Virus record (IMG/VR): IMGVR_UViG_3300032224_000591
Coordinates: 32,001-96,000 of that record
Source of the DNA: a virus
Strand: one strand, 5' to 3'
Length of the DNA: 64,000 nt
The notes beneath the pieces are model-generated. The model saw nothing but the letters and a program-made list of their open reading frames with translations, was not told where the DNA came from and searched no databases. Both the position numbers and the translations under genes were made by a program. This document shows positions 17,792 to 61,558 of this stretch, one piece after another. Position 1 is the first letter of the stretch. Each line of letters opens with the position of its first letter.

Positions 17792-17805
17792 TTTGGAGAT
17801 ATAAA

Positions 17806-20490
17806 TTGGCAGCCGTTCAAACCACATATACCACAGACGTTGAAACATCTACTCGCAGTGGTACCCAATTAACTGTTACAACAGATACTCAAAGACAAAC
17901 TGTAGGTAATTTTGTTACCGACATGTCAATACAGCCATATATGGCCGCTGAAGAAATCTCCTTCTATGCATATAATATGCGTCCAGGTTCACGTATTCAT
18001 TGCTTCTTTGATAGTGTTAATGTGGATGCTTATTGTGCACCTGGTGTATCAACTTCTGCAAATACAACATCAATTGACACGTCAACAAATGCTGCTATCG
18101 TAAAAACCGCTGCTTGGGGAACTGCAATCTATGCTGATTCTACCGGGCATGTGTATGGTAGATTTAATCTACCAGCAGGTAGATTTAAGACTGGTGATAG
18201 AGTATTCACACTAGCTGATACTACTAACCTAATTCTTGGTACTGATGCTTTAACAACTAAAGCTGCTGCTGTCTTTACAGCATCTAATATGAATGTCACT
18301 AAGTCAACAGTGACACTGACTACAATTAATCCTTTGATTGCAGTTATTCCGGTTTCACAGACAGTTGTTAATACGACTTACTCAAATACATCAATTGATC
18401 TACCTGACCTTCCTGGTGTTGTTTTTATTGATGCTCAGTGGGAACCTATTGCCCAAGCATTAAACATTAATACACCTCAGGGCGAAGCAGGCGTCTATGC
18501 GACATCGCTTGATTTATTTTTCAAGCAGAAAGCACAAATGCCTGGTGTTGACCATGGTGTTACTGTTTATCTGACAGAAATGAAGAATGGTTATCCTGAT
18601 GGTAAGTCTATCCTCCCATTCTCAACTGTGCATCTTAGGGATGCTGATATTAATATCAGTGAAGATGCAAGCGTAAAGACTACATTTGTATTCGAATCTC
18701 CCGTGTTCCTTAATAATAATATGGAATATGCTTTCATTGTTAAGCCCGATGCTAATGATCCAGACATCTGGGTGTATAGTGCATCTCTTGGTGATGTTGA
18801 TATTAAGTCTGGGGTTCAGGTATACAGCCAGCCTGTTACCGGTACGGCATTCTTTGGTGCTACCATGACAACATGGAGTGCTTTACAGTCAGAATACATC
18901 AAGCATAATCTAAATATTGCAGTCTTTAGTAATGCTCAGGGTGATGTATATTTTAATAACGCAAACTCTGATTTTGTAACTCTTCAGAATATTTCATTTA
19001 ATAATTCGAATAATACTATTTTACCTGGTGATACAATATATCAAGCAAGTAATAGTACACCTTCTACTGTATCTACATCGATTAATGGAATAGTTAGACA
19101 GTATGATAATACTAGAAATATCATATATGTTAGCAACTCGTCTGCAAATTTCACAAACAATGCCTTCATACAGGTACATAGATATGCTAACTCTACACTC
19201 AAGACATCCCCTGGGCCTAATACAACTACTATAATTGCTTCAGGTAATACGGGTGTACTTAATAATATTGTAGTCGATGGTATTTGTGGTCAGTTCGCAA
19301 CACTACTTCCTGCTGGTACGGGTATTGCATTTGACTACAAGGGCGCAAGCAATACATATCTAGCTGATTCAAATACTAACGTTATTACACCAGGTATTGA
19401 AACAGATATGTTTGATAAGGAAAGAATTGTAGCTAGTTTATCCAATGAAATAAGTGCTTCTAGTGGAAAGACTTTTACTATTCATGGTCGATTCCAGTCT
19501 GACTCTGCTCTTCTTTCACCGGCTATTGATCTAGTCAAAGCTAATGCTTTAAGTATTGCCAATCTAGTTGATCCAGTAGGATTTATCTATAATGAATACT
19601 ATAATAATGGTACATCCAAAACTAAGTATATCTCTCAAGTGGTTACACTAGCAAATGGTCAGGATGCACAGGATTTACAGATTCATATTACTGCGCATAA
19701 ACCAGTAGGAACTGATATTAAGTTATATGTAAAGTTCTTGAATAATCAGGACGTTGAGCCAATTGCCAATAAGACTTGGACACCAATGCTCAATCTAGGA
19801 TATAATATTTATAATACGGTTGAACCAAATGATATGACTGAGTTAGTTTATCAGACATTCCCTTATTATGGTCTAACTCCAACAACTGGGACTATCACTT
19901 CTTCGTTGGGTTCTAATACTATAACTGGTGTAGGAACAAAATTCCAGACAGAGTTAGTAGTTGGCCAATGGATTAATATGCCAGCAAACACAACTTATTC
20001 AGAAACAGCAAGACAGGTTATTGCTATTGCAAGTAATACCTCATTAACAGTGTCTAATACATTTGGTGTCGCATATACTGCAAATGCTTATTATGTAGTC
20101 CCACCACCAACTACAGCTTGGAAGTCTAATACATTCTCTACACTACAGACTGGTACAGTATCTGCTAACACAACAACTAATATTGTGACCGGTTCTGGTA
20201 CTAACTTCTTAAGCTTATTGCCTGGTCAGACTATTAGTTTTGCACAGGACAGCGATATTATTACAGGCATTACTAACTCAACGTCACTTACTGTACGTAC
20301 CCCATGGTCAGCCACTGTGTCAGCACAGACTTTCTATCTGGTAGCAACTGGTGGTGTTTCATACTTAAACTCTAAGAACAGTCTATTCACTAACTTCAGT
20401 CGTTTTCAAATCAAGATGATTCTACAATCAAATGATAGCTCTAAGGTCCCAATTGTTAGTGACATTAGAGCATTGGCTATGCAGCTCTAA
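17806..20490 (+). CDS. Large virion structural protein, VrlC/DUF4815-like (C-terminal part)
   Basis: TTG start after GGAGA; IQPYM...ISF....MRP.SR...FFD, EPIAQ, TSLDLFF..K, T.F.FESPVFL....EYAF, F..FQIKMIL......VP...DIRA.A. Confidence 0.75.
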   Translation: MAAVQTTYTTDVETSTRSGTQLTVTTDTQRQTVGNFVTDMSIQPYMAAEEISFYAYNMRPGSRIHCFFDSVNVDAYCAPGVSTSANTTSIDTSTNAAIVKTAAWGTAIYADSTGHVYGRFNLPAGRFKTGDRVFTLADTTNLILGTDALTTKAAAVFTASNMNVTKSTVTLTTINPLIAVIPVSQTVVNTTYSNTSIDLPDLPGVVFIDAQWEPIAQALNINTPQGEAGVYATSLDLFFKQKAQMPGVDHGVTVYLTEMKNGYPDGKSILPFSTVHLRDADINISEDASVKTTFVFESPVFLNNNMEYAFIVKPDANDPDIWVYSASLGDVDIKSGVQVYSQPVTGTAFFGATMTTWSALQSEYIKHNLNIAVFSNAQGDVYFNNANSDFVTLQNISFNNSNNTILPGDTIYQASNSTPSTVSTSINGIVRQYDNTRNIIYVSNSSANFTNNAFIQVHRYANSTLKTSPGPNTTTIIASGNTGVLNNIVVDGICGQFATLLPAGTGIAFDYKGASNTYLADSNTNVITPGIETDMFDKERIVASLSNEISASSGKTFTIHGRFQSDSALLSPAIDLVKANALSIANLVDPVGFIYNEYYNNGTSKTKYISQVVTLANGQDAQDLQIHITAHKPVGTDIKLYVKFLNNQDVEPIANKTWTPMLNLGYNIYNTVEPNDMTELVYQTFPYYGLTPTTGTITSSLGSNTITGVGTKFQTELVVGQWINMPANTTYSETARQVIAIASNTSLTVSNTFGVAYTANAYYVVPPPTTAWKSNTFSTLQTGTVSANTTTNIVTGSGTNFLSLLPGQTISFAQDSDIITGITNSTSLTVRTPWSATVSAQTFYLVATGGVSYLNSKNSLFTNFSRFQIKMILQSNDSSKVPIVSDIRALAMQL

Positions 20491-26700: not shown

Positions 26701-27227
26701 GTACTGCAAACAATAGTACTTATTTTAATAGTCAAGCCGCAACATACTATACGAATGCTACTAACATTACAACTGGTGTCCTTCCATGGGCACAAGCACC
26801 AACAAACACTGTTAATACAAGTGGTGCATTTACTATTACCGGTGTACACACCCATAGTGCTAATGTTAGTGTCACCGGCACGAGTAAGTTTACCGGTGTA
26901 GTCGACGCCGCATCAGCTAATACACTTAACCAGACACTAACTGATGGTGTTACAATCACGTGGGATACTTCACTTGGTCAGATTGGTACTGTAACACTTG
27001 CTGGTAATAGGACTATGGCTGCGCCGACAAATCTTAAGGTGACTACATACATCCTCCACGTTCTACAGGATGCAACAGGCGGCCGAACAATAACATGGAA
27101 CTCAGTGTTTAAGTGGACCGCAGGCGCAGCTCCAGTTCTTTCTACTGGCGCTGGCAAACGAGATGTGTTCTCATTCATCAGTGATGGTACTAATCTTTAT
27201 GGATCTTACTTGCCTGACGTCAGATAA
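23775..27227 (+). CDS. Long tail fibre protein
   Basis: N-terminal FQVKRTS..GR.P....GELALN..D..LY; NA..LGG.AA.SY repeats; shared ~100 aa C-terminal domain. Confidence 0.8.
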   Translation: MANNVFQVKRTSVAGRTPNTTSSYATNSQYIAAGELALNMTDQILYTSDGTNIISVGANIANQRITNSLTLNNNVKINWRDVYGANVSLVHQSDDNSVFYSTNVAHQPRAIWSVFANSDTSAFTISAPTQFNSNATYNGTNIILSGSAGIVANGSLGSNGWVLTSNGTSAYWISAGASSTDVTANFVWQNSHTFQKQVVFTGNGISLTSNTGGVNYNGNTDTNWRMGRNTGLTTKFYYSNNTMDIIAGGSNLEGIVFGQSSGNTYLETGYAGTFTKNPIYVGNATVNVSINSTSFTGTANNATNLGGVAAASYVNTSGNYTVSGNINFTGANVYYTSTLYAAGQVVIGAAGDLILANGSGIQANGTWGAAGYALMTDGSGNDYWGNPATNTSAQYTWSNTQTFSNTITFSGSLLGSTINATSYTTGNVTTGTGGAVLNTSVLFIGNNTVNATFTTSGVTVGTYWVTNSTGVYHTGLVNAASYNIGSTLIANTTGVYHTGLVNAASYNTGGGYGTVTGGSVVNSSVIAVGNSTVNTIINATSFSGVANNASNLDGVPASNYVNTSGAYTISGVHTHTANIYANSALFFANAIAHSVTTGATANGTTQATAYPIVTTAVQFTTVAAGSGAILPTAVPGQRLFIANDGANQLLLYPAVGGLIDQAAVNAAITIAAGGMWEGHSLTTVNWTSISPDTQGSNGVVVTQGNGVVMLTVNAAYINTISANNAAYLGGTAAASYQLNSTLNANIASYLPLYNGVVNTSSVTMGNASVGFTGNTTGLYHTGIVNAATFTTTGAANVGSLNVSGNASITGSMTISGNLTISGNSVSIGANNLIVQDAVISLHTYANLAPWTVNDGKAVGVAFHYFDTADKQGLLSVTQSNGVLTYYSTSTDAAVADPVGNTLGTFQAGVLLAGNSTVYTTVNATNYTGTSNNALYLGGTAAASYALKADVHYIGTTSVALNRASAALSLTGVSIDGTANNSTYFNSQAATYYTNATNITTGVLPWAQAPTNTVNTSGAFTITGVHTHSANVSVTGTSKFTGVVDAASANTLNQTLTDGVTITWDTSLGQIGTVTLAGNRTMAAPTNLKVTTYILHVLQDATGGRTITWNSVFKWTAGAAPVLSTGAGKRDVFSFISDGTNLYGSYLPDVR
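25182..25294 (+). repeat. 41-bp exact direct repeat with a 72-nt period inside the fibre gene
   Basis: ggtgtatatcatactggtctagtaaatgctgcatcgtataa at 25182-25222 and 25254-25294 (GVYHTGLVNAASYN twice). Confidence 0.85.
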
Positions 27228-27230
27228 ATA
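27225..27230 (+). promoter_or_regulatory. Late promoter-like TAAATA overlapping the stop codon
   Basis: GATAAATA 30 nt upstream of the GTG start at 27261. Confidence 0.5.
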
Positions 27231-27744: not shown

Positions 27745-29313
27745 ATGTTTGTAGCGTTTCTACCACGCCCAACTCAGGTTGTCACAATCTCATCTGCGGC
27801 AAACAACATCAACCTGTTCACGCAGGCTAGTAGTCCGCCGTATCCATTGAATCTACTCTGCTTTATCAATGCTGCAGTCGGCTCAACATCAAACACAACA
27901 CCTGCGTTCAGAACTGGTACCGGTTGGGTACCAGGCACATTCCTTTATATTCAAAATTCAAATACAGTTACTGGTGGCGCCGGCCCAACAGGAAGCACTG
28001 GAAGCACAGGAACACCTGGTACAACTGGCTCGACAGGAACTACTGGGCCCGCTGGAACACCTGGTGGAACTGGAACGACTGGAGCAACAGGAAGCACCGG
28101 TCCAGCAGGTGGTGGTGGCGCAGGTGGAGCACAGGGTGGGCACGGAGCAGGCGGCCGTGGTGGTAATGGCGGCGCTAACTATCTAGCAGGTGATGGTGGT
28201 TCCGCAGGAAGTTATGGTGCTACAGGAAATCCAGGTGGCCCTGGCGGAAATGGTACACCTGGTGGAACAGGTGGCACTGGCGGTACTGGCGGAAATGGAA
28301 CTAATGGAACAGCTGGTGGCCCCGGTGGAACAGGTGGCACTGGCGGTACTGGTGGAACAGGTGGTGCCGGCGGCAGCGGTGGTATCGCGCTTCAGGCTGA
28401 CACAGTCACTGGTCTTATCACAGTTGTAAATAATACAACTACAATTAGCGGCGGAACGGCGGGCCCCGGTGGTGCTGGCGGGACTGGCGGGCCAGGTGGC
28501 CCGGGCGGAGTAGGTGGTCCTGGCGGTGCGGGCGGTAATGCTGGGCCTGGCGGGCCTGGTGGTCCTGGCGGACCCGGTGGTGCCGGCGGGGCGGGTGGTC
28601 CTGGAGGAATTGGTGGTTACGGCGGTGGCGGCGGCGGTGGCGGCGGCGGATCCGGATTTTATGCACCAGGTGTTCGATTTGCGCCTACTAGTGCACTAAC
28701 TTATGTCCACGGTGCAGCAGGCGGTGGAGGTGGCGGAAGCTATGGTTCAGTTGGTGCTGGCGGTGATGGTGGTTGGACTTACTCACCAGCGTACTATTCA
28801 CCTGCAGGTAAAGCCGATCCGCCTAACTTGAATCCAGCATTTAACGTATTTGCTTACGGAGGTGCTGCAGGATCTGGTGCATCCGGTGGTTCAGGTGGTG
28901 GTGCCTGGTACGGTGGTGGTGCTGGTGGTCGGGGCGGAGACGCACAAAATTCTGGAGCAGCAGGAAATGCTGGTACTGGTCATCCAGTTTATGCGCCAGG
29001 TGGTAAAGCGGATCCGCCTTATATCTCATATTATGATACATATTGGGGCGGTGGTGCAGGTGGAGCAGCCGGTGGTCAGGGTGGATCAGGATCAACTGGG
29101 CCAGCAGGAACGCCAGGAAGTACTGGACCACAGGGCGCGACTGGCGCAGCCGGTAGTGCGGGATCGCCTGGAGCAACTGGCCCAACAGGGCCAACCGGAG
29201 CGACTGGGCCAACAGGGGCAACAGGAACACCGGGTTCACAAGGACCAGCTATATCAGGTACAGCAAATATTACTTGGATAAACAATGGTACAAGAAACGG
29301 ACCAATAGGATAA
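27745..29313 (+). CDS. gp38-like polyglycine receptor-binding adhesin with collagen-like G-X-Y expansions
   Basis: [13 protein letters not shown], polyglycine tracts flanking aromatic loops, C-terminal GPAISG..NITW...GTR.G.I resembling T2-type gp38; directly follows fibre genes. Confidence 0.65.
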
Positions 29314-29317
29314 AGAC

Positions 29318-29785
29318 ATGGACATTCATTACAAGATTCTAGAAGTAAACCCAAATGAACATGCGATTGTCGTTAGATATTTCAGTGATGTTCTTAGTGA
29401 GGAACAGCTAGTTATAAACGCCGAAGATCCTAATCGTAGAGATGATGGAAGCCCATGGCGTTGTCGCACAGACTATAATTTGAACTTACCGGTACCTGCT
29501 CCAGTAGGAGAGGAACTTCATAAATTTATTGTGATGTCAGCACCAATCGGCTGGTTTGATATGCAGCATAAAGTTGTAAATCCGGACATCGATACTTCGC
29601 TATCACATATCACTGAGTTAGTTGATCAACATATTACTATAACAGGTGAAGACATTTTTAAGGCCTTTAATGTTGAAGTATCTACAAATGAATTAACTGG
29701 ACTATACGAAGAGCCTACTGGACCAATGACAGAAGACGATATTGTAGAACTTTTGAAAAAGGCAGCCGCTGGACAAGTAGGCTAA
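29318..29785 (+). CDS. Hypothetical protein
   Basis: 155 aa ORF tightly coupled to the adhesin gene and the first PP-loop gene. Confidence 0.6.
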   Translation: MDIHYKILEVNPNEHAIVVRYFSDVLSEEQLVINAEDPNRRDDGSPWRCRTDYNLNLPVPAPVGEELHKFIVMSAPIGWFDMQHKVVNPDIDTSLSHITELVDQHITITGEDIFKAFNVEVSTNELTGLYEEPTGPMTEDDIVELLKKAAAGQVG

Positions 29786-29788
29786 TAA

Positions 29789-30859
29789 ATGGCATCTGGT
29801 CTTAAGCTAGGTAAGAATATTTTTTATTATGATGAGCATAATAACGTCTATGATAACAGACACGCTTTATTTGCTAATAGTAATGCAAAAGTAAAGAGAT
29901 TCTACTACTACGATAGAGAGTTCGATAAGGTTGACTGGAGAAAAGAACCTCCAGAAGATCTATGGACTCTCTATTCTAAAAGAGCACAACAGATCAGAGA
30001 TGATTATGAATATGTTGTGTTATGTTACTCTGGTGGTATAGACTCTACTACAATACTTGAAGCCTTTTACTACAACAATATTCATATTGATGAGATATTA
30101 GTAGTAGGTGCATTCTCTCAGGATAAGTTTGAAGGTGATGACACCAATCATAATGGTGACATCTACTACAATGTCTATCCTACGCTGAAGACAATGGATC
30201 TTCCAAACACTAAAATTACCATTAAAGACTACACTGATTATTTTGTAGATCCTAATAACTTTAGTCTAATCAAAGAATATGGTGATGACTTTAGTAAATT
30301 CTTAGGTTCATATACTAGTGTACACAATCTATTCTGGTATGACTTAAAGAAATTCATATCACTACCAGATAAGAAGGCTTGTTATATTATGGGGTCTGAT
30401 AAACCTAGACTAGCATTTCATTATGAAAATAGAAAATTCTTTACTCAGATAAATGACAATGCTGTAACTGACTATGGTGCAGCTATGTTTGATGATAACT
30501 TTACTAGGGTCAATTTCTATACACATCCAGATGCCCAAGAGATCATGCGTAAGCAGCTTCATATGATGATGCATTATTATATGCAGCAGGTCCTAGCAAC
30601 TCAACGGATGACTCATGATGATTATGATAAACACTATATAGCTATAGCAGATGCAATAATATATAACCTTAGAAATCCTCTGCAATTTAAGTCAAAGAAG
30701 TCTTCAATTGCATGCTTAAGTATAAGGGATACGTTTATACTAGATAAGCAAGACTCTAAAATGTTTCAGTTATATAAAGATTCATTGACTAGGATAGATA
30801 AAAAAGTAGCTATACCTAGAACTGGATTTAGGACTAAAGCATATTACATCACGGAATGA
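29789..30859 (+). CDS. PP-loop (adenine nucleotide alpha-hydrolase-like) ATP pyrophosphatase, paralogue 1
   Basis: RAQQIRDDYEYVVLCYSGGIDSTTILEAF; GSDKP motif. Confidence 0.7.
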   Translation: MASGLKLGKNIFYYDEHNNVYDNRHALFANSNAKVKRFYYYDREFDKVDWRKEPPEDLWTLYSKRAQQIRDDYEYVVLCYSGGIDSTTILEAFYYNNIHIDEILVVGAFSQDKFEGDDTNHNGDIYYNVYPTLKTMDLPNTKITIKDYTDYFVDPNNFSLIKEYGDDFSKFLGSYTSVHNLFWYDLKKFISLPDKKACYIMGSDKPRLAFHYENRKFFTQINDNAVTDYGAAMFDDNFTRVNFYTHPDAQEIMRKQLHMMMHYYMQQVLATQRMTHDDYDKHYIAIADAIIYNLRNPLQFKSKKSSIACLSIRDTFILDKQDSKMFQLYKDSLTRIDKKVAIPRTGFRTKAYYITE

Positions 30860-30862
30860 GTT

Positions 30863-31330
30863 ATGGATTATCTTTTCTATTTCCTTTTATGGACATTCAT
30901 GATATATTGGATGCATAGGTTAGTACATGTGGTTCCCTACGTAAGTAAGATCCATGGTGACCATCATGCCCAAGTATCACAGGAGACGATCCGTGGACTT
31001 CACTGGACGAACCTGTTTCTATTCTTTGATAGCTGGAAGAGTACTGCAGACCAATGGATCACTGAAGTTATTCCAACATTCATCTTGTGTTATATTACTG
31101 GACAGTGGTGGTTAATGATTTCTTACTATATCTGGGCAGCACTGATCCAAGAGTCTATTGAACACAATGAGAAGTTTGACTTGTACCCATTCATCACCAG
31201 TGGTAGATGGCATTTAATTCATCATAGAGATCCTAATTCAAACTATGGTGTATTCTTTCCTATTTGGGATGTATTATTTGGAACTTGGAAGGGAATAGAT
31301 GGCAACGTACAAAAATTGGTTCAGAAGTAA
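30863..31330 (+). CDS. Fatty acid hydroxylase/sterol desaturase family membrane di-iron enzyme
   Basis: His boxes YWMHRLVH, HGDHH, EHN, HLIHH followed by NYG....WD.LFGT; hydrophobic segments. Confidence 0.85.
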   Translation: MDYLFYFLLWTFMIYWMHRLVHVVPYVSKIHGDHHAQVSQETIRGLHWTNLFLFFDSWKSTADQWITEVIPTFILCYITGQWWLMISYYIWAALIQESIEHNEKFDLYPFITSGRWHLIHHRDPNSNYGVFFPIWDVLFGTWKGIDGNVQKLVQK

Positions 31331-32135
31331 TATCAGTGCGCGGACAGATCAAGCGTTTGACCTTGATGTTACTATAAAGAAGATTGATCAGTGGAACCTT
31401 GATACTCCATGGGATAAAGCTTCTGAGAACGTAGTAAAGCTTATAACTGACCTTGATAAGCCGATCTTTATTGGTTTAAGCGGTGGTATAGATTCAGAAT
31501 ATGTGTGTACTGTATTTGAAGAGGCTGAAGTCGATTATACTCCTGTACTCATTAGAACACAAGGTAATAAAGCCGAGTTAGAATATGCTTATAGCTTCTT
31601 AGGTAGATGGGGCCGATATGATAAGGCAGTAATAGTTGACAAGAAGAATGTCGACATGCTATCTACCTACTACTATAAATTACTTACCGGCTGTTTTGGT
31701 TATGGTTATAATTCTGTAGCAACGTATATGGTCGGTGAGTATGCAAAACAGAATGATGGTATATATGTTATGGCTGAACACCTGATTGATGATTATGATA
31801 CAGGTGGGTTTAAGGTAGGTTGTAATGAGTGGGACTTCTATAATGACTTGCTTTTAGGTGAGGACAATACACACTACTTCTTCAACTATACACCTGAGAT
31901 TAGTGCTGCTATGATTAGAGAATTCCCTGATTATAGTGATATACAGAAGTCTAAAGCAGAGTTCTATGGTCTAAAGTATAGACTAAAGATGCACTATGAA
32001 TATGATGAGCTTTATAATGATACATTAATGAAGCTTAGAAAGACTATAAAGCTTACACATAATCCAAATTATACATTTGGAACACCAAAAGAATACTTAA
32101 GAATGCTATCAGAGGTGCAAGATGAATCAACCTAA
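31299..32135 (+). CDS. PP-loop ATP pyrophosphatase-like protein, divergent paralogue 2
   Basis: KPIFIGLSGGIDSEYV motif; FFNYTPEI echoes the paralogues' FFWSPD segment. Confidence 0.6.
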   Translation: MATYKNWFRSNISARTDQAFDLDVTIKKIDQWNLDTPWDKASENVVKLITDLDKPIFIGLSGGIDSEYVCTVFEEAEVDYTPVLIRTQGNKAELEYAYSFLGRWGRYDKAVIVDKKNVDMLSTYYYKLLTGCFGYGYNSVATYMVGEYAKQNDGIYVMAEHLIDDYDTGGFKVGCNEWDFYNDLLLGEDNTHYFFNYTPEISAAMIREFPDYSDIQKSKAEFYGLKYRLKMHYEYDELYNDTLMKLRKTIKLTHNPNYTFGTPKEYLRMLSEVQDEST

Positions 32136-33006
32136 AGTACAAATAGGTAATGAGCAAACTCTACTGGAGACAAAGGAAAACCTTAAGTCATTAAGGGCAT
32201 ATAGTGCTGAGTATGCTTGGGGCAGTGACCTCTATACTGACTTTGAGAAAGCTTATGGTAAGTATCTATTAGTTCCATTTGATATTCCAAAGATTGTACC
32301 AAATGATACCAATAAATTTGTGTCATTCTGGTTCACCAGGGCCGCTAATGCTGTTAAGATTAAAACTGATATGCTTAGTAAAGATGGCGTTGGTACCGGT
32401 ACTAGTTCTCCATATCTACAGATAACTAGTACATCTGATAAGCATTCAGATGTCTGGAGCGATAATCCAGTCCCTGACATCTATACTGAGTTTCCGGAAA
32501 TCTTTGAGCAAGTGCATGAATATATGCCATTCATTACGCGCAAAGATTTTAAGTGGTATATGTGGTCATCAAACTGGAATGTGCCACCACACCGTGATTA
32601 TGGTTCACAGCTAGATTGTCCATCAGGTATTCGTATCATGTTGTTTGACAATAATCCAGAACCAACTTTAAGCATGACCGTATCACCTATAGGTAAGGTA
32701 TATGATCGTAAGTATCCTATTATTGTACCTGATGATACCAATAGTTTTGCTTGGAATAACCTTCGTCAGAAGCATGAGAGTGTATACAATAAAGGTCACC
32801 GAAAGGTGTTGTTTATTATCTCCCCAAAAGAGTTAACCTATTTTCTTAGCACTGTTGACAACAGAAAGACTATCAATAAATATGTTGATCTTCTGGACAG
32901 AAGCATAGCTAAATATAAAGATCATGTTATTGTAGATACAGATAATGACTATACAGACTACTTGGCATTGGATAAATCTGACCCAATAAATAGCATTATC
33001 AGATAG
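32122..33006 (+). CDS. Putative cupin/2OG-Fe(II)-type oxygenase
   Basis: VPPHRD (HxD) ... SFAWNN...KHES....RK (distal His), DSBH-like spacing. Confidence 0.45.
   Translation: MNQPKVQIGNEQTLLETKENLKSLRAYSAEYAWGSDLYTDFEKAYGKYLLVPFDIPKIVPNDTNKFVSFWFTRAANAVKIKTDMLSKDGVGTGTSSPYLQITSTSDKHSDVWSDNPVPDIYTEFPEIFEQVHEYMPFITRKDFKWYMWSSNWNVPPHRDYGSQLDCPSGIRIMLFDNNPEPTLSMTVSPIGKVYDRKYPIIVPDDTNSFAWNNLRQKHESVYNKGHRKVLFIISPKELTYFLSTVDNRKTINKYVDLLDRSIAKYKDHVIVDTDNDYTDYLALDKSDPINSIIR
32987..32992 (+). promoter_or_regulatory. Late promoter-like TAAATA
   Basis: AATAAATA 25 nt upstream of ATG 33018 (SD AGGAG). Confidence 0.5.
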
Positions 33007-33017
33007 GAGATATATCA

Positions 33018-33395
33018 ATGGCTGTTTACATCCATCACTACATTCATAAGTCTTCAAACAATACCTTTAATGGTAGGCAAGAGATGAATGCCTCGCAGCA
33101 ACTCGCTTATACAAACTGGAATGAATACTGTGTTCAAGTTCAACCGGGTTGGGTATCAACCGACGGGCCTATCGATATTGATGAAAATACTAGAAAGATA
33201 ACATACACTATCGATATGCAATCATATGATTTTATTAATCCACATGTTACTGATTTTTGGAAGAATACTCATGATGAAAATAATCAATACTATGCTGCAT
33301 ATAAAGCAGCATTTTCAGGTAGACTAAATCATAAATTCAGAGTCACTATTGAAAAAGATGGTGTAGAGACAGACTTTATTCCTCTTCCAGCTTAG
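33018..33395 (+). CDS. Hypothetical protein (module small subunit A)
   Basis: 125 aa, strong AGGAG SD; precedes a PP-loop gene. Confidence 0.6.
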   Translation: MAVYIHHYIHKSSNNTFNGRQEMNASQQLAYTNWNEYCVQVQPGWVSTDGPIDIDENTRKITYTIDMQSYDFINPHVTDFWKNTHDENNQYYAAYKAAFSGRLNHKFRVTIEKDGVETDFIPLPA

Positions 33396-33412
33396 TAAAA
33401 TGTTAGTATATT

Positions 33413-34615
33413 ATGAATCAACTACATTGTGGTTACTATACGTATAATGATAAAATCTATATTTCAAGAAGATCACTTCTTGATGATATAATTGCAGATA
33501 AAAGAAATTATGGTCTAGAGCATGATGTTCAATTTAATTTTAATGATGAAGTATTCAGCAAGTTAGATTGGACAGTTGAACCAGAAATTCCTTTAAAGAC
33601 TCTCTATAAAGACAGAGCACAACAGCTTAGGGATACATACGAGTATCTTATTCTTAGCTATTCAGGTGGTTCTGATTCACATGAAGTATTAAATATATTC
33701 TTAGAGAATGGTATCTTCATCGATGAAATACAGGTGGTTCATCAGTATAAATTAGTCAAAGCTTTACCTAAGAGTGTAATGGATGAAGATCCAGCTCTTA
33801 GAATGTGGTTAGAATTTGAGAAAGTAGCAGCTCCCGCACTACTTAAAGTAAAACAAGTCAGTCCAAATACTAAGCTTACTCTACTCGATGCATCTGACTT
33901 TATTGTTGATGATCTTACTACAAAGAAGTATGCATTTCTTGGACTAGATAAATTTGATACAAATGCTACATTCCTTGTTAGTACTACTCCATTTGCTAGA
34001 AACTACTTTCAACATCAGCATAATAGTAAGGTAACTACTTCTAGTAAGAAGACAGGATTTATACGAGGAACAGAGAAACCAAATCTTAAGATGTATCGTA
34101 ATACATTAAAGTTTAGCTTTACTGATGCTACAATGCATGGTATTAATCTCCTTCAGAATAGGGATATGAATGAGATATATAATATTGAAAATTTCTTTTG
34201 GTCTCCGGATGTTCCGTTGATACCTATCAAACAATCACATATTATTAAGAATGTTCTTGAGAATGACTCGTTATTCTATGCTCAATTCATGATCGCTCAA
34301 GAAAAAGCAATCATGCATACTGAGACAAATAAAAGAGGTATGTCAGGAGAGCAAGACTTTCAAAGAAAATATATTAAGTATATCTACTCATATGGAGATG
34401 AAATTAAATTTATAGCTCCTAAGAGAACATTAATATCACCTGAATTTGTAGCTACTGGGATACTGTTTGGCGAGACATCACATCATGATGCTCTCAAAGA
34501 ACAAAAGACTTTCTACAATACTAAGTATAAATCGATCGATGATCCTCGACTTCTAAATAGATCTATAGACTCAACTCGTTATGAAATTGGAGAGATAAAT
34601 GCAAAATGGAATTAA
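33413..34615 (+). CDS. PP-loop ATP pyrophosphatase-like protein, paralogue 3
   Basis: RAQQLRDTYEYLILSYSGGSDSHEVL..F..N.I.IDEI; RGTEKP; ENFFWSPD.PLIP.KQ.H. Confidence 0.7.
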   Translation: MNQLHCGYYTYNDKIYISRRSLLDDIIADKRNYGLEHDVQFNFNDEVFSKLDWTVEPEIPLKTLYKDRAQQLRDTYEYLILSYSGGSDSHEVLNIFLENGIFIDEIQVVHQYKLVKALPKSVMDEDPALRMWLEFEKVAAPALLKVKQVSPNTKLTLLDASDFIVDDLTTKKYAFLGLDKFDTNATFLVSTTPFARNYFQHQHNSKVTTSSKKTGFIRGTEKPNLKMYRNTLKFSFTDATMHGINLLQNRDMNEIYNIENFFWSPDVPLIPIKQSHIIKNVLENDSLFYAQFMIAQEKAIMHTETNKRGMSGEQDFQRKYIKYIYSYGDEIKFIAPKRTLISPEFVATGILFGETSHHDALKEQKTFYNTKYKSIDDPRLLNRSIDSTRYEIGEINAKWN

Positions 34616-35504
34616 GGGTGCAGTAGCTGGCTTGATGATGATTGGTTCTGCCTCGGCGGCAGAGCAGGTATCTATTATCACAAGCATTCCAACATCTGGG
34701 TCTGGTGGGCAGATCGGTGTCGGCATCACGCAGATTTTGAATAAGGTCCAAACAGAGCGTGAGTATAAGTTCTCACAGATTCCTGGAGCGCAGGGTGATA
34801 CATCAGCGCTAAAGGTATTAGTAGATGCTAAGCTTCAGAATGTAGTAATGTTCAACGGCATCTCCGTGACTACTACAAATCGATTGCTGAACCCAAACGC
34901 TGGATTCGATCGTGATAAGGACTTCATTCAGAGTGTAGGTATTGGTAAGAACTACTATGCCATTATGGTTAACCCTGACTCGCCTATCAAGAACGTTGAT
35001 GACCTAGTGAAGTCGATCAAGAGTAAACCAAAGGCTTTCTTCTCGACCACCCTCACTGCTCCAGGTTCCGTTATCATCAATGACATCTTCCTGAAGAGGT
35101 ATGGAATCACTGATAAGGTTGACTCTATCAATTATAAGTCACCTCAAGATATTATCCTTGCACTGAACAACAAAGAGTCAGACTATACCATCTTCACGGT
35201 TTCTGATATGACTAATCTGAAGGCTATCATGGTATCGTCAGAGAAGCGTTTGATCCAGTTCCCTGACGCACCTACAGCCAAGGAAGCCGGGTTTGATGCA
35301 TTCTCACTATCATCTATTCTGATGTTCTCTATTCCTAAAGAGCGTGCTAGTTTTCAGAAGACCTTTGAGGATGATATGAAGAAGGCTTGTGCTCACCCTG
35401 ACTATGAGCGTGTTGCCATGATTCGTGCTCCTTACAGGTCAGAGTGCATGACACCGGCTGATACTATGGCAACAGTTGTAAACGAACTTAAGACGATCAG
35501 ATAA
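34599..35504 (+). CDS. TctC/Bug-family periplasmic solute-binding protein (divergent)
   Basis: Signal peptide ending ASA-A; IPGAQG; MVNPDSPIKNVDDLV; INYKS; RLIQFPDAPTAKEAGF. Confidence 0.75.
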   Translation: MQNGIKGAVAGLMMIGSASAAEQVSIITSIPTSGSGGQIGVGITQILNKVQTEREYKFSQIPGAQGDTSALKVLVDAKLQNVVMFNGISVTTTNRLLNPNAGFDRDKDFIQSVGIGKNYYAIMVNPDSPIKNVDDLVKSIKSKPKAFFSTTLTAPGSVIINDIFLKRYGITDKVDSINYKSPQDIILALNNKESDYTIFTVSDMTNLKAIMVSSEKRLIQFPDAPTAKEAGFDAFSLSSILMFSIPKERASFQKTFEDDMKKACAHPDYERVAMIRAPYRSECMTPADTMATVVNELKTIR

Positions 35505-35507
35505 ATA
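35502..35507 (+). promoter_or_regulatory. Late promoter-like TAAATA
   Basis: GATAAATA overlapping the TctC stop, 22 nt upstream of ATG 35530. Confidence 0.5.
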
Positions 35508-35529
35508 TTATCAGAAATGGGGGATCTTC

Positions 35530-35940
35530 ATGGTAATTTTAAGACGAATTTATACTAAAAATGACGGTGAAGATTGGAGAGGTGTATGGGTACCAGGTGA
35601 ACATACTGACCCACGCGACTCTAGCATTTTTGATGAGACAGAAGTTCAGCATATTCGTCAATTTAATGATCCAAGAAACTTTGTAGGATATAGTAAATTC
35701 ATACGTAAGTATGCTACTGATAATGAGTTAGTGTTTGACCTATATTTTGACACCCTTGAAAATGCACGTGTGTATTATAAAGCGTGTAGAGATAACCTTA
35801 ATACACCACTTAACACACTTATTCATGAGAAAATTGTTGATAATATGATTCCAGTTTATCAGAAAATATGGAAATTATACAGTATTGAAAATAATATTGA
35901 ATTTGAGTTTCCATTGACCTCAAAAGGATATGTACCGTAA
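35530..35940 (+). CDS. Hypothetical protein (module small subunit B)
   Basis: 136 aa; same relative position as 33018-33395, overlapping the next PP-loop gene. Confidence 0.6.
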   Translation: MVILRRIYTKNDGEDWRGVWVPGEHTDPRDSSIFDETEVQHIRQFNDPRNFVGYSKFIRKYATDNELVFDLYFDTLENARVYYKACRDNLNTPLNTLIHEKIVDNMIPVYQKIWKLYSIENNIEFEFPLTSKGYVP

Positions 35941-37141
35941 TATTATGAATCATGATTATGATCAGCTGCATCTAGGTTATTACATATATGATAACCAGAA
36001 GTTCTTAACCCGTGAGGGTGCTTTAGATATGATGTTAGCTAAAGAGGATTATGAAGGTAATATCCAATTTTATTATAATGATCATATCTTTGATAAGATG
36101 AATTGGCGTATAAATTCTTCAATTTCAATATCAACATTCTATAAAATGCGAGCGCAGCAGCTAAGAGACAAGTACAAGTATCTTATTCTGAGATACTCAG
36201 GTGGAAGTGATTCTACACAGGTGCTAGAATCATTCCTAAAGAATAAAATCTTCCTAGACGAGATAGTAGTCATTAACCATCAGAAAGCGATCAATAATCT
36301 AGATCGAACTATGATGCTTAATGACCCTACTCTTAGTGAGTATTTAGAGTATGAAATGGCTGTAGTACCACAGCTAAAGAGGGTTAAAGAGCTCAGCCCC
36401 AATACTAAGATTACTATATTGGATTCATCTGACAATTTAATTGATCAGTTGGGCAATAAAAAGTATGAGCATCTAGGTAAGAATGATGAGCCTCGATCTT
36501 TAAGATATGTTGTTGGTGGATTGATGAAGAACTGGACACCGGTGCTTATCAAGTATGAACAACAAACAGCAACTAAAGAAGGTGTAGCCGTTATCCGCGG
36601 TTTAGAGAAACCATATATTAAGATTACTGATAGAGGTAAAATTTTATTTTCTTTTTATGACATCACAATGACTGCTACACTGTCTATGCAAAAGTCTGGA
36701 TCACCATACACTATTGAAGACTTTTTTTGGTCACCTGACTATCCACTTATTCCAGCTAAACAGGCACATATGATCGTTGATGCTCTCTCTAAGAATGAGG
36801 CACTGTTCAATGAATGGAAATCTATAAAGGCTATGATTCATCAGGCATGGCTTGATCCTGAATTAAAAAGTTCACCTGGATATATCCTAGATAGATGGTA
36901 TAATAAAATCATCTATCCAGATTGGAATCCAACTACATACGTAGCACCAAAACCTACAAAAATAAGTGCTGATTCTAAACTAGTTAGTACATTAGGTATA
37001 CAACATAATACTTTAGACTTTACGATTGAGTATTCTGAATATAAAAAGAAGCGCTACGAGAAGATAGTAAATAAGCAGCTACTTAACAGGTATATCTTCT
37101 CAAGAACCTATTATCTGGGTGAATTTCAACCACAATTCTGA
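35930..37141 (+). CDS. PP-loop ATP pyrophosphatase-like protein, paralogue 4
   Basis: RAQQLRDKYKYLILRYSGGSDSTQVL..F..N.I.LDEI; RGLEKP; EDFFWSPD.PLIP.KQ.H; closely similar to 33413-34615. Confidence 0.7.
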   Translation: MYRNIMNHDYDQLHLGYYIYDNQKFLTREGALDMMLAKEDYEGNIQFYYNDHIFDKMNWRINSSISISTFYKMRAQQLRDKYKYLILRYSGGSDSTQVLESFLKNKIFLDEIVVINHQKAINNLDRTMMLNDPTLSEYLEYEMAVVPQLKRVKELSPNTKITILDSSDNLIDQLGNKKYEHLGKNDEPRSLRYVVGGLMKNWTPVLIKYEQQTATKEGVAVIRGLEKPYIKITDRGKILFSFYDITMTATLSMQKSGSPYTIEDFFWSPDYPLIPAKQAHMIVDALSKNEALFNEWKSIKAMIHQAWLDPELKSSPGYILDRWYNKIIYPDWNPTTYVAPKPTKISADSKLVSTLGIQHNTLDFTIEYSEYKKKRYEKIVNKQLLNRYIFSRTYYLGEFQPQF

Positions 37142-37149
37142 GGATTATA

Positions 37150-38079
37150 ATGAGAGCTTTAATACTTGCATTATCGATGATAGTGACAAATGCTGCATAT
37201 GCAGCCAAACAAATCGACATCTACTCTATGTTCTCGCCGGGTGCAGCGGGTACTATCATCGGTTACGAAGTAGTCAATAGGCTTAACACTGTACAGAGTG
37301 AGTATGAGTTTCGACTATCATCACTACCTGGTGCTGGTGGAGATATTGCCGCACTAAGAGTAATTGCACTAGCACGTACCGGTCAAGATGTTCTAATATG
37401 GCAGGGAACCGGTAGCTATACATTTGGTAAGTATACCTCTGCAAATATTAATGCATATGACCGTGATAATGATCTAGTACCTATTGCTTCATTCTCAGGT
37501 ACACCATTTCATTTAATGGTTGAACCAGATTCTGAGTTAAAAACATTAGCTGACCTAGTAAGTCAGTTTAATAAGAAGGACGTTGTTTACTTTGGTAGTA
37601 CAGCAACAAATCCGATAACACCATTCCTTAATGCTATCTTCATGAAGAGCAATGGCTTAAAGCCTTCGAAGGATCTAAACTATACAACACCATTTGATAT
37701 TACTAAAAGTGTCCTTAGTAAGGAATCTGAATATACTATATTCTCACCAACAGATGTTAGAGGTTTAAGATCACTAGTTATGTCAGGCCCAGAAAGATCT
37801 AGACTATATCCAAATGTACCTACAGGTAAAGAGCTTGGGATGAAAGACTTTGTCTTTACATCAACAATGCAGATTGCAGTTCCTAAGGAGAAGTCTGAGT
37901 TCGGTCTTAAGTTTACACGGATGATGCTTCAAATCTGCTATGACCAGAAGTTCAATGATGCTGTTGAAAAGATTGGATACGAAACAAAATGCCTCTCCGG
38001 CGATAAGCTAAAGAGCTCAATCAAAGAAGAGGCATTGATGATTAAAAAGTATGAAAACGATGTTGTCTGGAAGCCTTAA
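37150..38079 (+). CDS. TctC/Bug-family periplasmic solute-binding protein (divergent)
   Basis: Signal peptide ending AYA-A; FSPGAAG, LPGAGGDIA, DLVPIA, RSRLYPNVPTGKELG. Confidence 0.8.
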   Translation: MRALILALSMIVTNAAYAAKQIDIYSMFSPGAAGTIIGYEVVNRLNTVQSEYEFRLSSLPGAGGDIAALRVIALARTGQDVLIWQGTGSYTFGKYTSANINAYDRDNDLVPIASFSGTPFHLMVEPDSELKTLADLVSQFNKKDVVYFGSTATNPITPFLNAIFMKSNGLKPSKDLNYTTPFDITKSVLSKESEYTIFSPTDVRGLRSLVMSGPERSRLYPNVPTGKELGMKDFVFTSTMQIAVPKEKSEFGLKFTRMMLQICYDQKFNDAVEKIGYETKCLSGDKLKSSIKEEALMIKKYENDVVWKP

Positions 38080-38690
38080 ATAAACTTAGGTCCAACAACC
38101 CAAACCACGATCGACTTACGTGTTCCACTGGTTACTGGTGTAACACGGTGTCCAATAAATGAAGGGAAGAGAACACATCTTCCCTTTTTTCTTTCAATTG
38201 TAATTGGCTCATCTTGATTACCATCACATACCTGGAAATCACCACCCTCAAAATCATCATTCAGCATTAGTGTCAATGATAGTTTGCGCGTATCGTGCAT
38301 GTTTTGTGGCATATGTCCAAACCCCATATCCATATGCCAGTTATACTCACCTAATTCTGCTGCATCATATGTAGTGTATTGAAATGTTTCATAACCATTT
38401 AGATTAAAGTTATAGTACATCTCATTAATGCTTTGAACAACAAAATTCAACTTATCAAAGATCCAAGATGTTTCTGGATTTCTCATGTGAAATTTAATAT
38501 TTGACTTACGAACCTTTTCAGTAACTTCTTGATCACCTGAGAAAGTAGTACCTCGCTCTGTTCCTTGAGCATCACACCAAGCAATAAGTGTATTAAGCTC
38601 TTCTTCAGTAAATGCGTCATCCCAATATGTCCACGCATGTGTGATACGTGCACGGCGATATGGATCGTTATACAGTGTTGTATATGTCAT
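38076..38690 (-). CDS. 2OG-Fe(II) oxygenase (PKHD/prolyl-4-hydroxylase-like)
   Basis: YNWHMD, RKLSLTLML.DDFEGGDF, FPSF..HRVTPVTSGTRKSIVVW. Confidence 0.9.
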   Translation of the reverse strand: MTYTTLYNDPYRRARITHAWTYWDDAFTEEELNTLIAWCDAQGTERGTTFSGDQEVTEKVRKSNIKFHMRNPETSWIFDKLNFVVQSINEMYYNFNLNGYETFQYTTYDAAELGEYNWHMDMGFGHMPQNMHDTRKLSLTLMLNDDFEGGDFQVCDGNQDEPITIERKKGRCVLFPSFIGHRVTPVTSGTRKSIVVWVVGPKFI

Positions 38691-39376
38691 TTGCGGAAAA
38701 TTCTCCAGTTATATGATGGTTGAATACCGGTAGGCTTTGCCTCAATTTTTCTATAGGTAAAGAATATATCACCAGCAAGGCAGACACGCTTCTTCTTTAG
38801 ATCATCCAAACACTTACAGCCTTCATCAAGCTCTGAGTTGCCATAACCTACAGTATGATGGCTGAGTCTAGCTGGGAATACAAATAGATTGCCTTCACTT
38901 GGAGCAAATCCAGTGTCGTATGCGTTAAACTTATTCTTCTCTGTCGAGTTGAACCTAATCATGCCATAGTATGGGTCGTTCATATGTGGTGGTGTAGATG
39001 AGAAGACAATAGGCTTCTCTAACTGATCGGGTATATTAGCATAGTAGGTGAATGACAGATGAGCATCCTCATGACTGTGGAAAGGTGTATGTCTCTCCTT
39101 GGTAATATTCATCCATGTCTTGACAATGTTAATGTCAAATGTTTCAGGATCAATAGCAAGTGTATGAAGGTACTCCTCAACTACTCCTGTGATATATCCA
39201 AAAAGTGGTGCAAATGCTTCCTCATGATGAATATTGACATGTCCAGTATACTCATTCGAGTAACCTTCGATCGTCATATAGTTCATCAGCTTGCTTAGAA
39301 AGATAGGCTTAAACTTATCAGCATCCCTATACTGATCTTCAATAACGAGAGTTGGGAACAGCGCATGTCTAATCAT
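38687..39376 (-). CDS. Putative 2OG-Fe(II) oxygenase (TIGR02466-like)
   Basis: LFPT N-terminus, W.N......H.H....LS..YY, P.EG.L.VFP..L.H, R.CLAG. Confidence 0.8.
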   Translation of the reverse strand: MIRHALFPTLVIEDQYRDADKFKPIFLSKLMNYMTIEGYSNEYTGHVNIHHEEAFAPLFGYITGVVEEYLHTLAIDPETFDINIVKTWMNITKERHTPFHSHEDAHLSFTYYANIPDQLEKPIVFSSTPPHMNDPYYGMIRFNSTEKNKFNAYDTGFAPSEGNLFVFPARLSHHTVGYGNSELDEGCKCLDDLKKKRVCLAGDIFFTYRKIEAKPTGIQPSYNWRIFRK

Positions 39377-40332
39377 CTATTTGCCTCATTCAACTTTTTC
39401 AGTTCACCTGCAAATTGGCCACCTATCTTAATTTGATACGTAACCAGTTTTTCTGCTTCATTATAATCAATCATATTCACTTCAACGTTCATCTTCATAG
39501 CCTCAGCTAGATAATCAGGGTCGGCTAGGGCTTTCTTGAATGCTTCACGTAGTTCATCTCTAGTCCATGGCGGAATACCCGGCGGCGCAACAAATGGTCT
39601 TAGCATTGAGTAGCTTGCCTCTACAATAGATAGTATTGTTTTGTCCATATCTGATTGTACTACCTCTGCAAGGGTTTGTACATCTTTATATTCAGGATGC
39701 CTATTAGTTCCATTGCCAAATTGCATGCATGCCTTAATACCTGAGTCTGGCTTTAACCAGTGTGGCTTTTGAGTCTTAATACCGACTAAGTTATAGACTA
39801 CGGCATCAACCTCTTTTCTCTCAAGTGCAAGTCTAGCATCACCGGTCGTAGCATAACCGGTGACGATCTTAGCATCTAGCTTAGCTAGGTCACGAACAAG
39901 GAAGGCTGGATTCACACCGGCATAGTTCTCAGAGCCGATGATCTTTGGATTATCAGTATTACACCATACGATGACCGCATCCTTACGGCCATCAACGTTA
40001 GATCCGATCCAGGTGAACTTACTAGCATCATACTGAACATTAGGTCCACCGAGAGCGCCGACTAATGGAATCTCTTTATAGAACGTACCAATGACTGATC
40101 CATCCTTAGGTGCGTGATTATATAGGTAGTTAGCTGCAACCATACTTGCTGCTCCAGGCATAGACTGGATAATAAGTGTAGGATGATTAGGGTGATGCTT
40201 AACTAGGTACTTACCGAGGACTCTGGCATTGATATTATAACTATCGTTGTCAGATGGGACAATAATCTTTAAGGTGTCTGCCGCAACTGATGTGACCATT
40301 AGGGTCAAAGCGAGGGCAATCGCTCGAAACAT
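39373..40332 (-). CDS. TctC/Bug-family periplasmic solute-binding protein
   Basis: Signal peptide; IIVP....YN..AR, MPGAASMVAANYLYN.APKDGS.IG, F.WIGS, GY......LALER.EVD, RPFVAPPG.P. Confidence 0.85.
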   Translation of the reverse strand: MFRAIALALTLMVTSVAADTLKIIVPSDNDSYNINARVLGKYLVKHHPNHPTLIIQSMPGAASMVAANYLYNHAPKDGSVIGTFYKEIPLVGALGGPNVQYDASKFTWIGSNVDGRKDAVIVWCNTDNPKIIGSENYAGVNPAFLVRDLAKLDAKIVTGYATTGDARLALERKEVDAVVYNLVGIKTQKPHWLKPDSGIKACMQFGNGTNRHPEYKDVQTLAEVVQSDMDKTILSIVEASYSMLRPFVAPPGIPPWTRDELREAFKKALADPDYLAEAMKMNVEVNMIDYNEAEKLVTYQIKIGGQFAGELKKLNEANR

Positions 40333-40371: not shown

Positions 40372-40379
40372 TATTTATA
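40372..40379 (-). promoter_or_regulatory. Perfect T4 late promoter TATAAATA driving the minus-strand TctC/oxygenase operon
   Basis: TATTTATA on the + strand, about 40 nt upstream of the minus-strand start at 40332. Confidence 0.65.
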
Positions 40380-60974: not shown

Positions 60975-61558
60975 TGTTTGAAACACTGGTTATTGATGAT
61001 GTACTAGATAGAGTGTATGCGCGTGATCTACATACTATGATCATGCGTGATGCGACATGGAAGTTTCTTAATGATGTGAGCGGAGCCGAGAACCAGTCAT
61101 TTCCATCACATGGGTTTTCCCATCTGATGAAGCATCCTGATGCTGATAATGTCAGCAATCTATATAAACCGGTAACTGGTCTTTTTACTGATGTTTTTAA
61201 GAGCTTTGATCTTAGTGACATCTATCATACGCGTATCTTCCTTCAGTTGCCATTGGCTGAACCTTATATGAAGGAACATAATGGTGTGCATGTGGATCTT
61301 CCTGCGACAATGCCCCATGTTGCTGCAGTTTACTATGTAAATGGCAGCGATGGTGAGACGATCATCTATGAACAAACGTCTGATGCTGTTGTAGGTGGTG
61401 CAAATGTAAAGCTTGACGAGCATGCAAGAGTAAAACCTAAGCGTGGTCGTATGGTACTATTCGACGGCTTACGCTATCATTGCAGTTCACAACCAAAGAT
61501 CAACTATCGCTGTATCATCAACTTCGACCTATTAAAGGGTGAAAATGCTTCTAGTTAA
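60974..61558 (+). CDS. 2OG-Fe(II) oxygenase-like protein
   Basis: HVD, YYVN.SDG.T, PKRGR.VLFDG..YH.S..P....R..INF. Confidence 0.8.
   Translation: MFETLVIDDVLDRVYARDLHTMIMRDATWKFLNDVSGAENQSFPSHGFSHLMKHPDADNVSNLYKPVTGLFTDVFKSFDLSDIYHTRIFLQLPLAEPYMKEHNGVHVDLPATMPHVAAVYYVNGSDGETIIYEQTSDAVVGGANVKLDEHARVKPKRGRMVLFDGLRYHCSSQPKINYRCIINFDLLKGENASS

Follow-up and report, generated by a model that had tools for sequence, protein, structure and literature searches.

A conserved, undescribed phage module of viral PP-loop enzymes and TctC proteins adjoining a gp38-type adhesin

Enzymes with the asparagine synthetase B (AsnB) type of fold share a chemistry in which a carboxylate is adenylated and then attacked by an amine. 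The lasso-peptide cyclase is a stand-alone, AsnB-like isopeptide synthetase that makes its amide on a polypeptide without a glutaminase. T4-like cyanophages and pelagiphages carry hypervariable, tail-adjacent islands with 2-oxoglutarate (2OG) oxygenases. The gp38 adhesins of Straboviridae (S16, 6F45; PP01, 9V85), as described in PMC12032242 and PMC12892980, are polyglycine-II (PGII) sandwiches with variable loops between glycine-rich motifs, like the adhesin considered here. We analysed an island of genes for PP-loop enzymes, TctC/Bug binding proteins and oxygenases at positions 29318-40332 of a 64,000-nucleotide stretch of phage DNA (the window), which comprises bases 32001-96000 of IMG/VR record IMGVR_UViG_3300032224_000591. 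The record is a complete virus genome of 167,756 bp with direct terminal repeats. The phage is T4-like, its nearest cultured capsids being those of DLP_6 (68%) and phiM12/phiN3 (64%), and an alphaproteobacterial host is suggested because the genome carries a Porin_2 gene. The island extends from a gp38-fold adhesin to gp13. A sequence-only reading had placed 13 packed genes there; the place was right, and the count proved to be 14 open reading frames (ORFs), 11 on the plus strand (29318-38079) followed by a convergent minus-strand trio (38076-40332). GC content is 35-38% in the island, compared with about 40-43% in the flanking structural genes. Features given below are on the plus strand unless noted.

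Our analysis confirmed the block as a conserved and so far undescribed module, founded on an unnamed family of viral enzymes. Its core gene order recurs in about 30 dereplicated relatives, so the arrangement is not a matter of chance. Among 29 dereplicated adhesin-linked loci with PP-loops, 27 contained a long PP-loop gene, 25 a PKHD-type oxygenase, 23 a short PP-loop gene, 22 the hydroxylase and 21 a TIGR02466 oxygenase, while the two TctC types were present in 19 and 16. PP-loop and TctC genes keep one another's company in these neighbourhoods rather than occurring as scattered homologues. The sequence-only reading had recognised no characterised pathway of this composition, and we found no description of such a system in a literature survey that covered few subscription papers. 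That reading had also taken the block for a single biosynthetic or modification cluster. A conserved, uncharacterised cluster it is, but the one pathway gives way to a mosaic of swappable modules. The first module consists of a chaperone-like gene, a long PP-loop enzyme of subfamily A (PP-A), a hydroxylase and the short PP-loop gene; the second, present twice, of a late promoter, a small ORF, a long PP-loop enzyme of subfamily B (PP-B) and a TctC gene; and the third, on the minus strand, of a TctC gene and two 2OG oxygenases. As to function, we tentatively favour, at somewhat short of an even chance, the reading that the island is a late cassette which modifies the phage's own gp38-type adhesin, acylating a loop lysine (Lys) with a tailored carboxylate.

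The four SGGxDS PP-loop proteins that had been noticed from the sequence were located at 29789, 31299, 33413 and 35930. None of them matched Pfam or PHROG, and NCBIfam gave nothing useful. Three are long, namely a PP-A enzyme of 356 amino acids (aa) adjacent to the chaperone-like gene (29789-30859) and two PP-B enzymes of 400 aa (33413-34615) and 403 aa (35930-37141) that are 39% identical; long enzymes as a whole split into the chaperone-adjacent clade A, clade B and others. A word search returned 102 long homologues, IMG/VR held 506 matching stretches, and the family comprises at least 1,569 clusters at 50% identity (E up to 1e-10). Atlas clusters of these proteins were 85-100% viral and unnamed, the viral structural matches were uncharacterised proteins of uncultured Caudovirales, and we met the family only in viruses. 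Neither the long protein at 33413 nor the short one had a match among 50,697 phage records, long PP-loop profiles gave chance matches only against PDB sequences, and a single-protein pattern scan of GTDB genomes, which detects close relatives only, returned no relative.

The structure model of the 33413 enzyme (predicted local distance difference test, pLDDT, 94) has an AsnB/beta-lactam-synthetase fold. It was closest to AsnB (Z 11.6, root-mean-square deviation (rmsd) 4.5 A, 279 residues aligned), followed by beta-lactam synthetase (10.1), TsnB9 (9.6), CarA (8.6) and QueC (5.7), with human ASNS also among the nearest folds. The nearly invariant SGGxDS motif and the HUP-type alpha/beta fold place the long family in the PP-loop superfamily. 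An N-terminal glutaminase of the N-terminal nucleophile (Ntn) type is absent, as the PP-loop begins at residue 84 and there is no N-terminal Cys, and neither GATase_7 nor PF13537 was found elsewhere in the genome. The motif G-E-G-x-D-E occurred in 0 of 97 long proteins, 94 of which carry G-x-[DE]-K-P instead. We rejected an identity with QueC on the CxxC zinc motif (0/97 long and 0/37 short proteins) and the QueC Z score, and a tRNA-thiolase identity on fold scores and motif counts. QueF, the sole Que/dpd partner searched for, was absent from the genome, and no Que gene was recognised in the island. The PP-loop enzymes therefore do not map to QueC or TilS, a possibility that the earlier interpretation had allowed. 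By analogy with AsnB-type enzymes, the reaction is likely to be adenylation of a carboxylate followed by attack from an amine other than glutamine-derived ammonia, and the model suggests that the module would work most like a glutaminase-free AsnB-type amide ligase system. A fifth long paralog lies outside the window (G000 15689-20013; L292:1690-6014), together with a Porin_2 porin, DUF2061 and radical SAM/SPASM genes, in a cluster that is conserved in relatives and is joined by the probable 294-aa oxygenase described below in L050 and L069.

All three TctC/Bug proteins previously proposed for the island were recovered with PF03401 (49, 44 and 24 bits, the lowest falling below the cut-off of 27), and each has an N-terminal, signal-like hydrophobic segment. 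Two are paired with PP-B genes (34599-35504 and 37150-38079), and the third (39373-40332, minus strand) belongs to a separate lineage whose top matches, at 44-92%, are followed by bacterial matches at about 40%. Because of their signal peptides and invariant Cys pair, the TctC proteins are probably located in another compartment than PP-B. The N-terminal GGxxD motif usual in such proteins is missing from the paired copies. TctC relatives are present in the PDB, and one island TctC queried against the 50,697 phage records gave only a weak match to a Salmonella record. TctA and TctB were not found in the genome. Clade B PP-loop genes adjoin TctC in 31 of 33 cases, and the distances among PP-B proteins track those among TctC proteins when the chaperone is controlled for (partial Mantel r 0.53, p 0.001). 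The second PP-B and its TctC are both nearest to copies in the more distant phage L030 (68% and 80%, respectively), which indicates that the pair moves as a unit, an affinity that physical linkage alone could explain. In some relatives other PP-loop families replace PP-B and still adjoin TctC, and in unrelated small phages a related adhesin, chaperone, TctC and PP-loop stand in a row. The smallest natural cassettes consist of an oxygenase, PP-B and TctC (L094) or of TctC and a PP-loop gene (L171/L185). Between close relatives, the first paired TctC (34599-35504 against L004:11172-12080) is 90% conserved and its PP-B partner 59%. Each pair in the window is preceded by a small ORF, one of 125 aa (33018-33395) from a phage family found beside PP-B/TctC pairs and one of 136 aa (35530-35940) that is weakly related to it (HHalign probability 67%). 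In L001 (7050-8330) and L006 a radical SAM/SPASM gene stands in place of the 136-aa ORF; the adhesin motif described below contains a Cys in L006 (PKGCSP) and none in L001.

The proposed target, a 522-aa adhesin (27745-29313), is encoded just upstream of the island. The receptor adhesin noted there previously is of gp38 type by fold: the top Foldseek matches of its model were PP01 gp38 (E 3e-5) and S16 gp38, with TM scores that are low owing to its length, and the model predicts a PGII sandwich with protruding variable loops. Its sole lysines are Lys356 (codon 28810-28812), which the model places with low confidence on the tip of a hairpin (pLDDT about 55), and Lys421 (29005-29007), and each lies inside a copy of Y-x-P-x-G-K-A-D-P-P. 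Among relatives, Y-x-x-[G/S/P]-K-[G/A]-[V/D]-P is retained within loops that otherwise show no relationship. Directly 3' of the adhesin, even in loci without the island, is the gene for a conserved 155-aa partner (29318-29785) that matched nothing in Pfam or PHROG and that we infer to be an assembly chaperone. Under a motif-free rule, in which Lys was scored in the first loop after the polyglycine run, 31 of 38 PP-loop-positive loci had a first-loop Lys, as against 1 of 13 PP-loop-negative loci. Arg showed no comparable difference (14/38 against 5/13). Lys makes up 0.4% of residues in these adhesins overall, both Lys codons are in use, and no Arg replaced the motif Lys among the listed loops. 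In loci found without a PP-loop query, PP-loop genes accompanied the strict motif in 23 of 23 cases and were present in 7 of 21 cases where it was lacking. The long PP-loop gene was absent genome-wide from four near-complete and two partial genomes with motif-less adhesins (positive controls, 5/5). Motif copies equal PP-B/TctC pairs in number in the window, L004, L006 and L020 and differ from them in L007, L013 and L030, and there is no correspondence between motif type (KAD or KGV) and PP-B subclade.

What follows the chaperone varies among lineages. Those without the motif have nothing in this slot, a prolyl-hydroxylase-like gene or sulfotransferases; other relatives have an amidoligase, a cupin pair or a metal hydrolase. 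In L194:2198-4008, L264:1531-4211, L288:1776-3198 and L208:985-3592, sulfotransferases and 2OG oxygenases come after motif-less adhesins whose loops are often rich in Tyr/Trp; this is a candidate parallel tailoring system. An Amidoligase_2 gene occupies the PP-B/TctC position in L093 (10032-10898), L099 and L118, where the adhesin has no loop Lys, and in the small phages L147 (9637-10868) and L172 (7556-8784) a 169-aa gene and a 240-aa His-motif (cupin-like) gene, both without a Pfam hit, replace TctC and PP-loop. A lineage of the same adhesin family with extremely His-rich loops, possibly metal-binding tips, occurs without a PP-loop island in L102 (10001-11197), L113, L123, L284 and L287.

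The predicted timing of expression points in the same direction as adhesin modification. The T4-type late promoter-like sequence ATAAATA was found upstream of 25 of 208 ORFs, many of them structural, where about 2 were expected. Copies precede the fibre-tip/adhesin operon (27224-27230) and the two small ORF-PP-B-TctC units that begin at 33018 (32986-32992) and 35530 (35501-35507), and the minus-strand trio is preceded by the late promoter-like site TATAAATA (40372-40379, minus strand), whose exact count is at chance level and which is informative only by its placement ahead of genes. From these motifs before the adhesin operon and the island units, we infer that the island is expressed late.

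If the cassette does decorate the adhesin, the long PP-loop enzyme would adenylate a small carboxylate with ATP. A protein amine is proposed as acceptor because the enzyme lacks a glutaminase; it would be the epsilon-amine of the loop Lys, giving an isopeptide or amide. The di-iron hydroxylase, the short PP-loop protein and the oxygenases would tailor the acyl group. The hydroxylase (155 aa; 30863-31330) bears out an earlier proposal of a His-box di-iron enzyme and belongs to the fatty-acid hydroxylase superfamily, with three conserved His boxes and a PF04116 score of 63 bits, above the Pfam cut-off. Overlapping its gene is that of the short PP-loop protein (278 aa; 31299-32135; matches to NAD synthetase, E 2e-7, and TtuA), a distant relative of the long type that is fused to a long PP-loop in four homologues. 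Three 2OG-Fe(II) oxygenases had been claimed. Two, both on the minus strand, are supported by Pfam, a PKHD/prolyl-hydroxylase-type protein (PF13640; 38076-38690) and a TIGR02466-type protein (PF13759; 38687-39376). The third (294 aa; 32122-33006) matched no library, neither Pfam nor PDB; the invariant residue pattern H157-x-D159...H218...K228 makes it a probable cupin/2OG-Fe(II)-type oxygenase, and it has a paralog at genome position 119715. Further 2OG-Fe(II) oxygenases lie beyond the island, at 60971-61558 in the window and 113994-115099 in the genome. Prolines in the Gly/Pro repeats may be hydroxylated by the PKHD-type oxygenase, whose gene is the one in the island most often retained next to the adhesin, also where PP-loops are missing. 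The periplasmic TctC would bind the same chemical group, either feeding a host Tct permease or masking the group or the receptor at lysis, and the decorated loop would be the part that recognises the host.

Several observations weigh against this reading. The Lys motif was defined post hoc, after the data had been seen. PP-loop state changed only about 3 times on the tree, so that locus counts are not independent, and phylogenetically independent pairs for Lys motif and PP-loop were too few and not significant. The association in the table is weaker (29/5/6/8) when Lys is defined more loosely and the small phages are counted as well. In the complete small phage G020 a loop Lys (GKDF) occurs without any long PP-loop gene, whereas L093/L099/L118 and L192/L271 have PP-loop genes beside Lys-less adhesins. 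Some Lys loci have PP-A alone and others PP-B alone, so neither subfamily is required. Of 69 PP-loop-anchored viral loci with flanks of up to 10 kb, only 19 had an adhesin or chaperone gene near the PP-loop, and jumbo-phage PP-loop fragments had no such adhesin. Away from adhesins the family sits with a fatty-acid desaturase, an NMO/FabK-like flavoprotein, a Rieske oxygenase, a B12 radical SAM protein and DctP, so that its members, taken together, may have more than one target. Lys168 of PP01 gp38 is implicated in lipopolysaccharide (LPS) recognition (PMC12892980), so an unmodified loop Lys can take part in receptor binding.

This last point would fit a rival explanation that we hold to be rather doubtful, namely that late in infection the island builds or alters a host envelope or lipid-like molecule, by acyl-amide formation, hydroxylation and desaturation, for instance to shield the receptor from superinfection or to stop progeny from adsorbing to debris. 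The loop Lys would then be an unmodified receptor contact like that of PP01, and the island would lie near the adhesin since the two follow the receptor. Amidation of peptidoglycan and O-antigen is carried out by AsnB-type enzymes, and phage T5 encodes a receptor blocker, Llp, in a gene adjoining its receptor-binding gene. A membrane-type di-iron hydroxylase is part of the core, the TctC proteins are exported, and distant phages pair the PP-loop family with the desaturase and other genes named above, with no adhesin near. However, no glutaminase is available as an ammonia source, a plain charge contact should tolerate Arg, which the motif lacks among the listed loops, and late rather than early promoters suit virion maturation better than exclusion. 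It is also conceivable, though we consider it unlikely, that the island turns an imported carboxylate into a small, diffusible amide or lactam serving as metabolite or signal, in which case TctC would be the importer or the sensor and the adhesin a mere neighbour. Beta-lactam/carbapenam synthetases and TsnB9 are among the nearest folds, PP-B and TctC co-vary without regard to the chaperone, and a PP-loop gene adjoins a binding protein in 37 of the 69 viral loci. A metabolite would leave the Lys motif unexplained, and it sits poorly with the highly variable gene content, the non-orthologous PP-loop replacements beside TctC, a genome without TctA/TctB and an island without exporter or regulator. 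A recombination hotspot gathering unrelated auxiliary genes without a shared pathway, which the scattered paralogs, the shuffled or inverted order among relatives and the unrelated CsgF/CsgG/CHASE2 genes sharing the slot would suit, is improbable given the fixed overlapping pairs, the constancy of PP-B beside TctC, the short/long PP-loop fusions and the reappearance behind a related adhesin in small, unrelated phages. In many relatives a CsgF/CsgG/FecR/CHASE2-adenylate cyclase module lies between island and gp13 (L002:14770-20322), and similar ORFs occur elsewhere in the genome of the window (G000 146155-152647).

The sequence-only reading had offered either the making or sensing of a small molecule or the decoration of virion or envelope; the evidence leans to decoration of the virion, and specifically of the adhesin loops. 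A wider version of adhesin modification is a serious but doubtful proposal. It holds that, in phages with gp38-like adhesins, AsnB-fold ligases of a large virus-specific family attach a small-molecule ligand to a loop Lys, and that the cassette of enzyme and matched periplasmic binding protein is swapped to shift host specificity by chemistry and not by sequence, with sulfotransferases or other enzymes in the same slot of related lineages. If the adhesin is indeed decorated, host range would hinge on a chemical modification that is invisible to sequence-based receptor prediction, and many orphan oxygenases, sulfotransferases and binding proteins would be virion-maturation genes rather than metabolic auxiliaries. 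With its two defined lysines, the adhesin lends itself to a direct test of this. Even with another target, the tight link of an enzyme to an orphan periplasmic binding protein calls for an explanation, and the enzyme family is very large, unnamed and common in uncultured, apparently aquatic phage contigs, while absent from the cultured-phage collection searched.

Compared with known systems, the 33413 enzyme resembles AsnB (1CT9), beta-lactam synthetase (1JGT), CarA (1Q15) and TsnB9 (7YLZ) in fold over most of its 400 aa (Z 8.6-11.6) and in the SGGxDS motif. It differs from them in being only 7-10% identical (rmsd 4.5-6.0 A), in lacking a full Ntn glutaminase domain and in having no Pfam hit, with the G-E-G-x-D-E of AsnB replaced by G-x-[DE]-K-P in its family. 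QueC and 7-deazaguanine clusters have the PP-loop in common with the island, and some Atlas clusters carry weak QueC labels (14-38% of members); the long island proteins, however, lack CxxC and are about twice as long, in a genome without QueF. The TctABC/Bug systems share the PF03401 match and signal peptide of the island TctC proteins, whose paired copies have neither TctA/TctB partners nor GGxxD and travel with an enzyme. The islands of cyanophages and pelagiphages have the same fibre-side position, multiple 2OG oxygenases and mosaic content; the long (33413) and short PP-loop proteins set the present island apart, being matchless among the phage records searched. The window adhesin has twice the length of the gp38 of S16 and PP01 and differs further in its GxxGxx extensions, the dedicated partner encoded downstream and the conserved Lys motif of its loops; term look-ups in PMC12032242 and PMC12892980 turned up nothing on loop modification. 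In mechanism, adhesin acylation would come closest to the lasso-peptide cyclase, from whose clusters the island differs in that a precursor, leader peptidase (B2) and RRE (B1) were not recognised by Pfam or NCBIfam among its ORFs, three small ones of which have no assignment, and in that the amine would be supplied by an internal loop Lys within a structural protein. By the features tested, the island is not a member of the AsnB, QueC or TctABC systems. Its mechanism, as set out above, is a proposal.

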